Below are positions 25,726-39,392 of a stretch of DNA of 64,000 nt, piece after piece. The notes beneath the pieces were generated by a model. It was given only the letters and a program-made list of their open reading frames with translations, did not search any database and was not told where the DNA came from. Position numbers and translations under genes: made by a program. Every line of letters begins with the position of its first letter. Position 1 is the first letter of the stretch. The stretch is from Alphaproteobacteria bacterium. Lineage in GTDB: Bacteria > Pseudomonadota > Alphaproteobacteria > MPNO01. The stretch is from NCBI GenBank assembly GCA_965248835.1, contig CBDFLJ010000001.1, positions 416,001 through 480,000 of the forward strand. The letters run 5' to 3'.

Positions 25726-25803
25726 CCGGCCCGGCGGACTCGCCGCAGACCCGGACTTATCCCCAGACGGCGGCCAAACCCGCCCGCCGGCCAGGCAAAA
25801 CCC

Positions 25804-25876
25804 TTGCAACGCCGAATCGGATCTGGCACGCTACATATTGTAGTCGTGGCGCCAGAGACTCCACAATATCTGGTCA
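25804..25876 (+). promoter_or_regulatory. candidate promoter of ybjN-proC with a GANTC site and tandem NrdR-box-like operators
   Basis: TTGCAA at 25804, CGAATCG in the spacer, boxes ACGCTACATATTGTAG (25828-25843) and CCACAATATCTGGTCA (25861-25876) match acaCwAtATaTwGtgt at the core positions. Confidence 0.6.
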
Positions 25877-25940
25877 TTTCCGCGAATTTGCGTCGCCGGT
25901 ATCGGGTGCGTTCGCGGCGGCGTTGCCCGGGATCAATCGC

Positions 25941-26444
25941 ATGGACATTGAATTGGAAAGCCACTACGAGGTCGGGGCGAATCCGCTCGACCTGATGGAG
26001 GAGTTGGCTTCGGCCAACGAGTGGCGGTTCGACCGGTCCGGCCCGCAGGACCTTTCGCTGGAGGCCGCCGGACACTGGTGCGATTACCGGATTTTCATGA
26101 CTTGGCATCCCGATGTCCGCGCATTGCTGTATGCCTGCGCCTACGAATTGCGGGTTCCGGAGCAGCTACGCTCGCGGGTGGCGGTGCTGATCGCCATGGT
26201 CAACGAACGTCTGATCATCGGCCATTTCGACCTGTGGATCGGCGACGGGCTGGTCGTTTACCGGCATGCGCTGCTGCTGCGCGGGATCTCCGCGGCAAGC
26301 GTCGAGCAGCTCGAGGACCTGGTCGACATATCGCTCAATGAATGCGAACGTTTCTACCCGGCCTTTCAGTTCGTCATCTGGGGCGGCAAGGAGCCGGCGG
26401 AGGCCATCGAAGCCGCGATCCTGGAAACCAGCGGCGAGGCCTGA
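25941..26444 (+). CDS. YbjN domain-containing protein
   Basis: NPLDLME, G.WCDY, NERL.IGHFDLW, CERFYPAFQFVIWGGK, C-terminal ET.GEA; conserved upstream of proC in alphaproteobacteria. Confidence 0.88.
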   Translation: MDIELESHYEVGANPLDLMEELASANEWRFDRSGPQDLSLEAAGHWCDYRIFMTWHPDVRALLYACAYELRVPEQLRSRVAVLIAMVNERLIIGHFDLWIGDGLVVYRHALLLRGISAASVEQLEDLVDISLNECERFYPAFQFVIWGGKEPAEAIEAAILETSGEA

Positions 26445-31008: not shown

Positions 31009-31146
31009 GAATCGATCAAGGATGCCCCGCCGGCAGTGTTGCAGAAGGGCTGGTGTCAGCGACAGTGCTCCAAAACGGGCTTGTCGAGGGAATTGATTGG
31101 CGGCATAAAGGTCACCTCAATGCAACAACGGAAAGGAGGTGATCCA

Positions 31147-31218
31147 GTGTCTCATTGTCGCCAACCGCGGACGCGGGTGACCTGGGTCTCCACCTATCGG
31201 GGGCCGTCCGTCGCCTGA
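31147..31218 (+). CDS. 23-aa small ORF MSHCRQPRTRVTWVSTYRGPSVA
   Basis: GTG directly after GAAAGGAGGTGATCCA, a maximal Shine-Dalgarno; TGA at 31216-31218. Confidence 0.55.
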   Translation: MSHCRQPRTRVTWVSTYRGPSVA

Positions 31219-31258
31219 TGCGACGCTCGCGGACACTGCGTTCCGCGGTTAGACAATG

Positions 31259-31288
31259 TAAGGGCCGCCCGGTTACGGGCGGCCCTTA
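31259..31288. terminator. intrinsic (probably bidirectional) terminator hairpin
   Basis: perfect TAAGGGCCGCCCG-GTTA-CGGGCGGCCCTTA between the sORF unit (+) and the convergent cupin-like gene (-). Confidence 0.8.
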
Positions 31289-36516: not shown

Positions 36517-38124
36517 ATGACCTATCCCGACCTGCGCGCCTATCTCGAGGAGCTCGACCGGCGCGCGCTGTTGCACGTTGTCGACGTGCCGGTCAACAAG
36601 GATACCGAGCTGGTCCCGCTGGTCCGGCTCCAGTTCCGCGGCCTGGCGGAGCCCGACCGCAAGGCGTTCTGGTTCCGCAACGTCACCGATGCGCGGGGCC
36701 GCAGCTTCGACGGCTCGGTCGTGCTTGGCGCGCTCGGCAGCTCGCGGACGATCTATGGCGCCGCCCTCGGGATCGCACCGAAAGAGATCGGACAGACCTG
36801 GGCCGCGGCCCACGGCAACCACCTCAGCCCGGTGCGGGTGCCGCGCGCGGCGGCCCCCGTGAAGGAGGTCACGGTTTCCGCGCCGAATCTCGGCCAGGGC
36901 GTCGACCGCTTCCCGCATCTGATCTCGACGCCGGGCTTCGATCCGGCGCCGTTCATCACCGCGGGCGTCTGGGTGACCCGCGACCCGGAGACCGGCACGG
37001 CCAATCTGGGTATCTATCGCGGGATGATCAAGGCGCCCGACCGGGTCGGCTGCGCGACCGACGTGTCGACCCAGCATCTTGCGATCCAGTGGGAGAAGGC
37101 CAGACGGCTGGGCCGGCACCTCGAGGTCGCGGTGTTCATCGGCGGCCCGCCGGCCTTGTTGCTGGCCGCGGCCTCCAAGGTGCCGTACGGCGTCGACGAG
37201 TACGGCCTCGCCGGCGCGCTCAACCGCGCCGCAATCGAGGTCACCGAAGCGGAGACCGTCGACCTCTTGGTCCCAGCCGCGGCCGAGATTGTCCTGGAGG
37301 GCCGCGTCCGCACCGATATTCTGGAGCCGGAGGCACCGTTCGGCGAGGCGAGCGGATATCTCGGCCCGCGCAAGATGGAGAAGGTCTTCGAGGTCGGCGC
37401 CATCACCCACCGCCGGGCGCCGATCTACCAGGGGATCATCAGCGAGTTCCCGCCGTCGGAGAGCACCGTGATCCGCAAGGCGGCCTTCGATGCGGTCTAT
37501 CTGCGCCATCTCAAGGAGGCCTGCAACATCCCATCGGTCAGCAAGGTCGCCTGCCACGAAATGGCGAGCTGCAACATGCTGTTCGTCATCCAGCTCGACC
37601 GGCCCGAGCTCGGCCAGCCATGGCAGGCCCTGCGGGCGGCGGCGGCCTTCGATGCCTCGCTCGGCAAGATGTTCATCGCCGTCGATGCCGATGTCGACCC
37701 CGACTCGATGGACGCGGTCCTGTGGGCGCTGTCCTACAGCATGCAGCCGCACCGCGACGCCGAGATCATTCGCGGCAAGGTGCCCCGGCTCGACCCGTCG
37801 ATCACGCCCTCGGACGATGCCCGCCAGTTTGCCTATCCGGATGGCTCGGGCGCATCCGCGATCCTGATCAACGCCTGCCGCGAACACCCCTATCTGCCGG
37901 TCTCGCTGCCGCGGCAGGATTTCATGGAAGCGGCCAAGGCGCGCTGGGAGGCGCTCGGGCTGCCAGCGCTGGACCTTGGCGCGCCGTGGTACGGTTATCC
38001 GCTGAGCGCGTGGACTGAGGAAAACGCCGACGAAGCCGAGCGCGCGGTCACCGGACGATATTTCGAGACGGGCGAAAAGCTTGCGGGCCGACGCCAAAGC
38101 ACCGACTCAACAGCGTCGGAATGA
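36517..38124 (+). CDS. UbiD family prFMN-dependent (de)carboxylase
   Basis: YPDLRAYL, TRDPETG..NLGIYR, VPAAAEIVLEG, EAPFGE..GY, AVDADVDP, INACR. Confidence 0.92.
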   Translation: MTYPDLRAYLEELDRRALLHVVDVPVNKDTELVPLVRLQFRGLAEPDRKAFWFRNVTDARGRSFDGSVVLGALGSSRTIYGAALGIAPKEIGQTWAAAHGNHLSPVRVPRAAAPVKEVTVSAPNLGQGVDRFPHLISTPGFDPAPFITAGVWVTRDPETGTANLGIYRGMIKAPDRVGCATDVSTQHLAIQWEKARRLGRHLEVAVFIGGPPALLLAAASKVPYGVDEYGLAGALNRAAIEVTEAETVDLLVPAAAEIVLEGRVRTDILEPEAPFGEASGYLGPRKMEKVFEVGAITHRRAPIYQGIISEFPPSESTVIRKAAFDAVYLRHLKEACNIPSVSKVACHEMASCNMLFVIQLDRPELGQPWQALRAAAAFDASLGKMFIAVDADVDPDSMDAVLWALSYSMQPHRDAEIIRGKVPRLDPSITPSDDARQFAYPDGSGASAILINACREHPYLPVSLPRQDFMEAAKARWEALGLPALDLGAPWYGYPLSAWTEENADEAERAVTGRYFETGEKLAGRRQSTDSTASE

Positions 38125-38135
38125 AAGGCGCAAAA

Positions 38136-38209
38136 GAATCCACAGATTATCCACAGAAAAGAATGCAATGAGGTAAAATATTCAGAGAATATCCACATAA
38201 ATGTCCACA
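38136..38209 (+). promoter_or_regulatory. cluster of four co-oriented DnaA-box-like sites in an AT-rich patch
   Basis: GAATCCACA 38136, perfect TTATCCACA 38147, ATATCCACA 38189, ATGTCCACA 38201; surrounding 38125-38270 is strongly AT-rich relative to the window. Confidence 0.65.
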
Positions 38210-38269
38210 ATAAATTTTTCTCCGGCGCATTTTTTCTTGGCGGACTAGCGGAAATGTAAGAGTATTCAA

Positions 38270-38468
38270 TCGTGGAAACGCGGTCTTCGGATCGGGTGAC
38301 CATAGGCCCCGGAAGGGACGGGGTTCCTGGAAGCGGCGGTGAGCGGTCTTCGGAGCGCGCGCCAAAGGGACCGGAAGCCTCGGGTCGGAAAGGGTCTGGA
38401 GACGTCAGGAGCGTTCTTCGGAGCGCGTTGCGAGGGCCCCGCGTCCAAGCACCTGGCGTCTCTTTTAT
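38270..38468 (+). ncRNA. candidate small RNA with three cUUCGg hairpins, GGA-rich, ending in stem plus U-tract
   Basis: CTTCGG at 38285, 38348, 38416 each closing a short stem; 12 GGA in 38274-38422; GAGACGTCAGG (38400-38410) pairs with CCTGGCGTCTC (38452-38462) followed by TTTTATT. Confidence 0.6.
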
Positions 38469-38549
38469 TGTGCCGGGCGCATGTCCCGGACAAGCCGGAG
38501 CGGTCCGCCGCCCCCGGCGACCCCGCCTCGAGATATCCCGCATCCACCA

Positions 38550-38622
38550 CTGAAAAGGCCCGGCACCCCTGGCACCGAGCCTTTCCGGTCAGTATCGGAC
38601 CCGCGTCCATCGCACTTGGCGG
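38550..38622 (-). ncRNA. candidate ~70-nt small RNA on the minus strand
   Basis: begins just after a TTGACC-17-TATGCA promoter and ends in AAAGGCUCGGUGCC-AGG-GGUGCCGGGCCUUUU, a stem that pairs fully (via G-U) only on the minus strand. Confidence 0.55.
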
Positions 38623-38626
38623 GCTC

Positions 38627-38700
38627 TGCATACCAGACACGCCGAATCGGGTCAACCATATGTTGGGGTACATCAAACAATAACCTGCCAAATGTTGTAA
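38627..38700 (-). promoter_or_regulatory. sigma70 promoter with GANTC site and tandem NrdR-box-like operators
   Basis: minus strand TTGACC-CGATTCGGCGTGTCTGG-TATGCA; boxes CCCCAACATATGGTTG (38653-38668) and TTACAACATTTGGCAG (38685-38700), period 32 bp, first overlapping the -35. Confidence 0.6.
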
Positions 38701-38921
38701 GGCTCAGGGACCTCCCAAAGCGGCCTTGCTCGATCAGGCGGCGGGCACCGCGCGCGGTCGGATCGTTGCCGGGCGCACCCGGTCGGGCCTTCGCCCACGT
38801 TCTCTCCGCTGGGGGCGATCACCGCGCCATTGGACGGGCCGGTCCGTTACCGCCAAAATGGCGCATGCTCCGGCGGTACGGCAATCGCCTGCCGCCGGGA
38901 GCTCAATTGCCGGAGGGGCCG

Positions 38922-39392
38922 ATGGCCGAAAAACTGGGTATCGGGGATTCGTTCCCAAAGCTCCAGCTCTCCCTGGTCGGCGGTGGAACGCTCGACCTGC
39001 CGGATGGGCTGGACTCGCGCTACAAGGTGATCCTGTTCTACAGGGGCCACTGGTGACCCTTTTGCCGCCGGCAGTTGGCCGGCTTCGCAGAACACAAAGC
39101 CGCACTTGAGAAACTGGGGATCAAGGTGGTCGCGGCCAGCATCGATGCGCCCGACAAGGCCAAGGAGTTCGCCGAGGAGGTGCCCTTCCCCGTCGGCCAC
39201 AGCGTAAGCCGGCAGACGGCCGATGCGCTGGGCTCGTTCTGGGAAGACCGGCGCGGGCTGATCCAGCCGTCGGAGTTCATCCTGGACAGCGAGAACAAGG
39301 TCGTCGCCTCCTCCTACAGCGACGGCCCACTCGGGCGAATCGAAGGAGCCGATGTCGTCAAGCTGGTGAACTTCTACGACTCTCGAAAGTAG
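38922..39392 (+). CDS. peroxiredoxin-like (AhpC/TSA, redoxin) protein, probable selenoprotein with UxxC motif
   Basis: GGAGG RBS, ATG 38922, FYRGHW-TGA(39054)-PFCRRQL continuing in frame to TAG 39392; hairpin immediately downstream of the TGA. Confidence 0.85.

Follow-up and report, generated by a model that had tools for sequence, protein, structure and literature searches.

Locus and general features

The window analysed here is a stretch of 64,000 nucleotides, C1:416001-480000 of a 4.89-Mb assembly that consists of two contigs (C1 and C2); positions given without a contig name are those of the window. The element in question is a 797-bp stretch, single-copy in the genome, which lies between a coding sequence (CDS) of the UbiD family (36517-38124; Pfam UbiD, E = 3e-53) and the CDS of an AhpC/TSA-type redoxin that starts at 38922. 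Two convergent RNA genes occupy this gap, one on the + strand (+ RNA) and one on the - strand (- RNA), with 83 bp between the end of the + RNA and the terminator of the - RNA. Both RNAs are conserved and structured. Taken together with computed co-occurrence, box geometry and the co-variation of a shared 9-mer, these features make it probable that the locus encodes a conserved convergent pair of regulatory RNAs, in which a + RNA led by an array of DnaA boxes and a - RNA repressed by NrdR would pair in trans.

An original prediction, made from the sequence of this DNA alone, had described the gap as a non-coding locus with two convergent small RNAs, and its layout was confirmed, each element being at or near the stated position (Table 1). 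No credible CDS had been seen between ubiD and the redoxin gene, and none of the five open reading frames (ORFs) tested through the gap contained a Pfam family; a protein-coding gap was rejected on this result and because 1-nt alignment gaps and the variable number of repeat units disrupt the frames. The four DnaA-box-like 9-mers (38136-38209), the + strand structured RNA that ends in a stem and a U-run, the interval of about 80 bp between the RNAs, the - strand terminator placed at 38552-38584, the - strand promoter and the two NrdR-like boxes were all found again. Two points needed correction. The description as "two small RNAs" holds for the - RNA of about 70 nt and fails for the + RNA, which has no fixed small size and is modular, ranging from about 85 to about 940 nt in length; and of the proposed trio DnaA, NrdR and CcrM, sites for the first two stood, while the CcrM/GcrA part was dropped, the GANTC site not being conserved in the largest genus. 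The complementarity of the two RNAs is a feature beyond the earlier description, and with its co-varying RNA-RNA contact the module is class-level and more structured than first noted.

Comparison with Rfam 15 returned nothing at gathering score for the region; at E <= 10 there were just three matches, with 13.5-15.3 bits. In 14 related loci (E <= 0.1) two unrelated matches occurred elsewhere, and neither RNA was matched. The covariance search for described families gave no match to either RNA, and the proposal that the module is undescribed held both for Rfam 15 and for the literature searched.

Table 1. Features of the gap between the UbiD-family and redoxin genes (positions of the window)
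Feature	Position	Strand	Details
DnaA-box-like array	38136-38144, 38147-38155 (9/9 to TTATCCACA), 38189-38197, 38201-38209	+	
Predicted + RNA promoter	38237-38266	+	T-tract, -35 TTGGCG (38237-38242), 18-nt spacer, -10 AGTATT (38261-38266)
+ strand modular RNA	38272-38468, ~197 nt	+	three UUCG-hairpin units, then conserved 3' domain
UUCG-hairpin unit reference copies	38280-38309, 38343-38372, 38411-38440	+	repeat analysis, folding
Conserved 3' domain (model R1)	38393-38472	+	three helices and U-run
P1, 12-bp outer stem	38398-38409 with 38452-38463	+	
P2	38411-38416 with 38421-38426	+	UUCG loop
P3	38429-38431 with 38449-38451; 38434-38437 with 38443-38446	+	loop CCCGC 38438-38442
+ RNA segment complementary to the - RNA 5' end	38438-38458	+	9-nt core 38438-38446, GCAC 38449-38452, TGGCG 38454-38458
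Small RNA of the - strand, ~70 nt	38551-38623 (model R2 match); ~38620-38552	-	own-genome match C1:454551-454623, E = 2.8e-12
Terminator hairpin of the - RNA	~38557-38584, U-run 38553-38556	-	
5' seed of the - RNA	complement of 38600-38622	-	predicted start near 38620
Promoter of the - RNA	38627-38655	-	-35 TTGACC (38655-38650), 17-nt spacer, -10 TATGCA (38632-38627)
Tandem NrdR-type operator	38653-38668 and 38685-38700		16-bp boxes, 16-bp linker; matrix scan

The + strand RNA

The + RNA carries an element of about 30 nt that is present in three copies at 63- and 68-nt spacing. Its long terminal stem (P1) is followed by TTTTATT up to 38469. DNA matches to the + RNA were found in 20 of 41 genomes of relatives, including 16 of 19 from the same family. 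One match in genome contigs (L037) was judged unrelated by eye, no RNA features being found nearby, and was excluded from later counts. The 3' domain is 86-92% identical between genera. A covariance model of this domain (R1) yielded 29 matches, 23 of them distinct, in genomes of several families. Across these 29 matches 97.8% of the cells were paired and 10 of 25 pairs were altered on both sides, values that are biased toward the structure to the extent that the alignment was fitted by the model; none of 500 shuffles was as good, and slid controls reached at most 52% paired. The stems and boxes, whose conservation in relatives had been put forward as a test of the locus, are both conserved, with the boxes upstream of the RNA in all 19 loci compared.

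The length of the + RNA differs by lineage. At this locus and in the largest genus it is about 200 nt long; a second genus has a version of about 400 nt, and a third one of about 940 nt with about ten 95-nt units; two distant lineages have a + RNA with one hairpin unit. The number of units ranges from none to about ten, and the units form hairpins with covarying pairs.

CsrB, RsmY and RsmZ are likewise composed of hairpin units in tandem that vary in number and are joined by GGA-rich linkers, and the + RNA could be a protein sponge of this type that acts via its GGA-rich units, with the - RNA only tuning its stability. The GGA content fits such a role here (12 observed against 5.4 +/- 1.9 expected) and in the versions of about 900 nt (61 and 62 against ~29 +/- 4.3), as does the variation in number of the covarying hairpins. 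On the other side, GGA is not enriched in three other lineages, many of the triplets lie within the stems of the UUCG hairpins, and the existence of single-unit versions means that the units are not the conserved core, which is the 3' domain. Of 20 genomes of the family one encodes CsrA (PF02599), and it is not the genome studied here; a CsrA sponge was rejected on the absence of CsrA from the other 19, and the + RNA further differs from the CsrB group in having no Rfam match. It is possible that the units serve as a sponge for some protein other than CsrA, yet as an account of the locus a sponge appears very unlikely.

The - strand RNA and its promoter

The - RNA starts with a conserved 5' end that is unstructured and goes on to a GC-rich terminator hairpin followed by a U-run, and four pairs of the upper terminator stem show compensatory change. 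The GTTGAC of its promoter is kept in nearly all aligned loci. The promoter spacer contains a GANTC site (38644-38648), which occurs in 4 of the 18 loci resolved by script and in one more by eye, and in none from the largest genus; because it so seldom recurs, CcrM/GcrA is not counted in the module.

Target searches for the - RNA in this genome and in genomes of the family produced no candidate. Among 1026 genome sites with the 8-mer, ranked by duplex energy, no 5' region stood out, and in 20 genomes of the family the target pattern occurred at background counts, like the reversed-pattern control. A recurrent 13-mer variant was rejected as a target, since it falls within unrelated coding sequences; two additional sites in the present genome were also rejected, one being within a BolA-like CDS and the other antisense to a DNA polymerase III alpha-type gene.

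DnaA-box array and predicted promoter of the + RNA

The consensus of the DnaA box is TTATCCACA. Boxes were scanned as 9-mers with at most two mismatches to it, and a cluster was defined as at least four boxes within 130 bp. Genome-wide 4636 9-mers match (0.95 per kb), as compared to four within 74 bp at this array. No other cluster of this kind exists in the 4.89-Mb genome, and the array is denser in DnaA boxes than the hemE-linked origin region. The starts of the four boxes are 11, 42 and 12 bp apart; measured from their centres, the boxes precede the predicted start of the + RNA by about 67 to 134 bp. A dnaA gene is present at C1:1.82 Mb.

Beyond the last box come A-rich sequence, a T-tract, TTGnnn and, 17-18 nt on, a weak -10. 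A promoter of the + RNA was inferred from the comparison of upstream sequences, which have in common a T-rich part, TTGnnn, a 17-18 nt spacer and a hexamer of the (A/G)nnAT type.

In 19 of 19 loci the densest 150-bp box window of the compared stretch of about 3 kb is upstream of the RNA, and in the genus with the 940-nt RNA the cluster is correspondingly more distant. The boxes persist beside different upstream genes, a 2-hydroxyacid dehydrogenase-like gene among others, sometimes in reversed orientation. In other families the densest box window precedes the RNA in 5-6 of 6 loci, the uncertain one having its cluster about 1 kb upstream; box clusters upstream of the + RNA were also seen in several metagenome contigs, and perfect 9/9 boxes occur here and in several further lineages. 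Judged by its sequence context the array belongs to the + RNA gene, and the box sites lead us to predict that DnaA controls the + RNA.

Four DnaA boxes, a phasing of 11-12 bp and an AT-rich patch would also suit a chromosomal origin (oriC) or a second origin. The usual alphaproteobacterial origin context is found elsewhere, namely at hemE (C1:1239404-1240414), beside an AT-rich gap with DnaA boxes that is followed by maf-like and aroE-like ORFs; this region (~C1:1.2405 Mb) is 786 kb from the locus. The GC skew, which is weak in this assembly, makes no turn at the locus (454 kb). The gene neighbourhood of the module further varies by genus, the module is missing from two complete genomes of the family, and one genome holds two copies. 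An origin at this place was rejected on the hemE-linked origin elsewhere and the missing skew turn, and its probability is close to nil. Control by CtrA was rejected as well, the CtrA-type box TTAA-N7-TTAA (<= 1 mismatch) having no occurrence in the window.

Clusters of DnaA boxes outside the origin are known as datA, DARS1/2 and the DnaA-box clusters (DBCs) of Bacillus subtilis, and the nrdAB promoter of Escherichia coli is regulated by DnaA. The array resembles these systems as a dense box cluster away from oriC and in the coupling of DnaA with the supply of deoxynucleoside triphosphates (dNTPs). It could accordingly act at the DNA level as a site that titrates or recharges DnaA, with transcription as an auxiliary, e.g. 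in clearing or loading DnaA. As the densest box cluster of the genome, above the hemE-linked origin region, and as a conserved array outside the origin, it has properties that such a site should have. It differs from datA, DARS and the DBCs by standing at a fixed distance before the promoter of an RNA gene; conservation in the locus is highest in the 3' domain of the RNA, with its compensatory changes, rather than in the boxes; the boxes keep their placement with respect to the -35; and a partner RNA that has an NrdR operator of its own is inherited with the + RNA. A role in DnaA titration and a role of the RNA are compatible with each other; as the explanation of the locus, titration seems quite unlikely.

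NrdR-type operator of the - RNA

The proximal box of the tandem operator ends in the GTTG of the -35 (overlap of 3-4 bp). An NrdR-type gene is present in the genome, i.e. a 168-aa ATP-cone ORF with an N-terminal CxxC...CxxC zinc ribbon, downstream of a glyA-like gene, and the gene for ribonucleotide reductase (RNR) on C2 has tandem box pairs 31 bp apart upstream. The scanning matrix was made from five boxes upstream of this RNR gene only, and the genome was searched for pairs at a distance of 30-33 bp. With a score of 28.7 the pair at 38653 and 38685 is the fourth in the genome and the second among the pairs not used for training; it is outscored by two training pairs and by a pair located between a PBP-like gene and a GNAT gene. 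The top pairs of six simulated genomes, each as large as the real one, reached 19.0-22.7.

A box pair with a linker of 15-16 bp that ends in the -35 was detected by script in 18 of 19 loci and by eye in the remaining one, and the same arrangement was seen in other families and in metagenome contigs. According to the published description, the NrdR operator comprises two 16-bp boxes with a 15-16-bp spacer and is bound by tetramers loaded with ATP and dATP (PMC12051234; see also PMC13584703). The operator of the - RNA agrees with this geometry and resembles the genome's own nrd boxes, and binding of NrdR at the - RNA promoter is predicted from these boxes. The claim of the original prediction that DnaA- and NrdR-type sites serve RNA genes was supported and agreed with every computational test made; both sets of sites travel with the RNAs across neighbourhoods and families.

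Two other NrdR-like pairs were noted in the genome. The best pair outside the training set (C1:1815948-1815994, score 32.1, 31 bp apart) is the one between the PBP-like and GNAT-like genes, near gyrB. Within the window a tandem pair with starts at 25828 and 25861 scores 26.9, the fifth genome-wide; together with a DnaA-box-like TTATCCCCA at 25757-25765 it lies upstream of a CDS of the YbjN family (25923-26444) and a proC-like gene, and 25757-25880 may be another promoter linked to NrdR and DnaA.

Distribution and co-inheritance

In a search of 78 genomes of the order with R1 and with R2, a covariance model of the - RNA, the same 18 genomes were selected by R1 at E <= 1e-15 and by R2 at E <= 1e-8; strong matches to R1 and R2 were missing from the other genomes of the order, including two complete genomes of the same family. 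Two further weak matches to R1 differ in the sequence of P3 and have no partner adjoining. The two genes are always convergent and tens to about 130 bp apart, save in one genus in which a protein gene is found between the RNAs and the distances are 1.1 and 2.3 kb; with this separation any interplay of the two RNAs would therefore be in trans.

Among 150 other alphaproteobacterial families, represented by one genome each, R1 matched in eight; the sample from the class came to 151 genomes in all. In four of these eight genomes a partner with NrdR boxes was recognized downstream by eye. R2 reached the threshold in two of five distant genomes, and in two others the partner was seen by eye. A degenerate pattern search of metagenome contigs gave at least 120 loci, of which 80 were examined and 19 were R1-positive. 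Two RNA families that Rfam lacks are defined in this way, the + RNA model extending to the eight other families and to environmental contigs. The closest copies belong to uncultured Defluviicoccus-like and Rhodospirillaceae-labelled metagenome genomes. The module is placed in different gene neighbourhoods in different genera, and the box sets move with the RNA genes.

Two of the loci are described individually. One genome of another family contains two copies of the + RNA (L094 and L102), each accompanied by the same array of four DnaA boxes; a search for the partner RNA in that genome was negative. In a complete genome (L099, 1922-2043) the module, found within the first 5 kb of the record, precedes by a few hundred bases a weak match to the rpsB leader family, which has 34.2 bits and is under the gathering score of 40.

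Complementarity of the two RNAs

A 13-nt direct repeat links the two genes: the P3 sequence of the + RNA at 38435-38447 recurs at 38597-38609. The second copy is transcribed from the opposite strand, and the two RNAs are therefore complementary. The 9-nt core of the complementary segment spans the P3 loop and its 3' arm, and the blocks of complementarity are parted by short mismatched spacers.

A copy of the core in the partner was found in 28 of 34 loci, and within it the two copies change together. They agree in 23 of the 28 loci at core position -2 (C/C 13, T/T 5, A/A 5), in 28 of 28 at position -1 (C/C 26, T/T 2) and in 27 of 28 at position y (C/C 16, T/T 11); at position -3, one base outside the core, agreement drops to 3 of 28. 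The co-variation is confined to the 9-mer. None of 5000 permutations, a procedure that takes no account of relatedness, equalled the observed agreement at -2 or y. Two loci have G versus A within the core, a change that retains a G-U pair in the RNA.

The same figures bear on the alternative that the locus encodes two independent small RNAs (sRNAs) that do not pair with each other and have mRNA targets of their own, the 9-mer and GCAC being sites of DNA-protein contact or the result of some other constraint. The shared sequence is indeed identical on the + strand of the DNA at both places, duplex energy puts the pair below first rank, and there are carriers of the + RNA that have no detectable partner. 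Independence is harder to reconcile with an agreement of 23-28 of 28 inside the 9-mer against 3 of 28 at -3, with G/A differences that break the identity of the DNA yet keep G-U in the RNA, and with the position of both sites in transcribed, structured parts, i.e. the P3 loop and the free 5' end. Strong matches to both RNAs moreover co-occur in 18 of 18 genomes, and the weak homologues of the + RNA with a different P3 have no adjoining partner. RNA pairing is the better reading because the edge of concordance is sharp and the core falls in the loop of a hairpin and in a free 5' end; two independent sRNAs are unlikely.

Several observations weigh against a pairing couple of regulatory RNAs and are collected here. 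As to the pairing, the spacers between the paired blocks are mismatched in most lineages, four to five loci are discordant at -2, and T/T and A/A may each derive from a single event or a few, which the permutations disregard. The directly repeated, identical 9-mers could instead serve a single DNA-binding protein as its two sites. The + RNA site is about the 18th of the 1026 genome sites with the 8-mer in duplex energy; in this GC-rich genome energy alone fails to single it out. As to the joint occurrence, 6 of 34 loci with a + RNA have no partner that was found, and the genome with two copies of the + RNA belongs here. As to the RNAs themselves, the folding energy of the single sequences is unremarkable in comparison to shuffles (z = -1.32 for the + RNA and -1.31 for the - RNA), the + RNA promoter lacks a well-defined -10, and a generic scan for promoters and terminators listed none of those of the locus. 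A hint of expression of the + RNA is provided by a public RNA-library run (X5), in which a contig of 157 nt lies wholly within the + RNA (38279-38435, 3 differences), with the restriction that such contigs give no strand, ends or level and that the library may hold DNA. The run has no contig over the flanking genes or the - RNA and is uninformative on their expression.

Proposed function and comparison with known systems

For the pair of regulatory RNAs preferred here, binding of DnaA and NrdR, the direction of regulation and the pairing in the cell are read from sequence features, and the following scheme is conditional on them. With its promoter just downstream of the DnaA boxes, synthesis of the + RNA would follow the occupancy of these boxes by DnaA, and DnaA would presumably activate it, because all boxes are upstream of the -35. 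The - RNA would be repressed as long as NrdR is loaded with ATP and dATP, a prediction made because the two-box operator overlaps its -35. Under dNTP shortage, when dATP is low relative to ATP, NrdR would leave the operator, and production of the - RNA would then coincide with that of ribonucleotide reductase. The seed of the - RNA would contact the P3 loop in a kissing interaction and then extend into the 3' strand of the terminal stem, and by this pairing in trans one RNA could neutralise or destabilise the other. The outcome would be a comparator at the RNA level, in which initiation potential (DnaA) is set against dNTP supply (NrdR).

A wider proposal, which we regard as doubtful, is that of a widespread alphaproteobacterial checkpoint, in which the two RNAs titrate each other and the surviving RNA acts on targets in replication or the cell cycle. 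NrdR is regarded as a repressor dedicated to the genes of ribonucleotide reductase, and DnaA as an initiator with a small protein-coding regulon. If the checkpoint existed, NrdR would not be RNR-specific, and the strongest chromosomal site of DnaA outside the origin would be an RNA promoter. At the present locus the two regulators seem to govern non-coding RNAs that are passed on as a unit and look built to pair. Should this be true, an RNA layer would be added to the coupling of replication initiation with dNTP supply, and the system would be a compact one of two promoters, two RNAs and one 9-bp contact.

The operators and RNAs were compared with described systems. Operators of NrdR at the promoters of nrdAB, nrdHIEF, nrdDG and nrdJ have the same two 16-bp boxes, the linker of 15-16 bp and the overlap with the -35; the gene controlled here would be that of a non-coding RNA of about 70 nt and not an RNR operon. 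NrdR is described as RNR-specific (PMC9110341, PMC12051234). A search of the open full-text literature, with most subscription journals outside it, gave neither an NrdR-controlled sRNA nor an sRNA behind such a DnaA-box array. In contrast to the nrdAB promoter of E. coli, the inputs of DnaA and NrdR would be split over two RNA promoters instead of meeting at one nrd promoter.

The closest counterpart by description is CcnA of Caulobacter crescentus, which is described as a cell-cycle non-coding RNA within the origin, driven by CtrA and with a C-rich pairing loop (PMC8959179). CcnA and the + RNA have in common that they are alphaproteobacterial non-coding RNAs of about 180-200 nt; each adjoins DnaA boxes, has a C-rich loop and is connected to the replication cycle. 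The present locus differs in its distance of 786 kb from the hemE-linked origin, in the lack of a CtrA-type box in the window and in a partner RNA linked to NrdR, so that CcnA, compared by its description, is set apart by position and promoter.

StsR-UpsM, SroC-GcvB and RNAI-RNAII are pairs of an sRNA and an anti-sRNA or kissing antisense pairs. In these, as here, a short RNA carries a free 5' seed with complementarity to a hairpin loop in a second regulatory RNA. The RNAs of the present locus are distinct from them as convergent neighbours that are inherited as a unit, each with a replication-related operator, and their pairing is a predicted one. In terms of known classes the operator is assignable by sequence to the NrdR boxes and the array to the DnaA boxes, and the RNAs stand outside the Rfam families.

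Other features of the window

Two non-conserved parts of the gap have copies of 80-91% identity on C1, 38729-38777 at 1403667 and 96493, and 38471-38511 at 1652157 and 697295; these parts look like small dispersed repeats. The adjacent redoxin gene (38922-39392, + strand) has an in-frame TGA (39054-39056) at the position of the catalytic Cys of AhpC/TSA proteins (GHW-x-PFC). The Pfam domain (positions 1-123 of 124) runs across this TGA, which is followed by a hairpin at 39060-39092, and SelA is encoded in the genome. The product is a candidate selenocysteine-containing, peroxiredoxin-like protein. Elsewhere in the window, positions 31123-31286 (+ strand) match the Rfam family of the Caulobacter sRNA CC2171 with 102.1 bits, as compared to a gathering score of 75.

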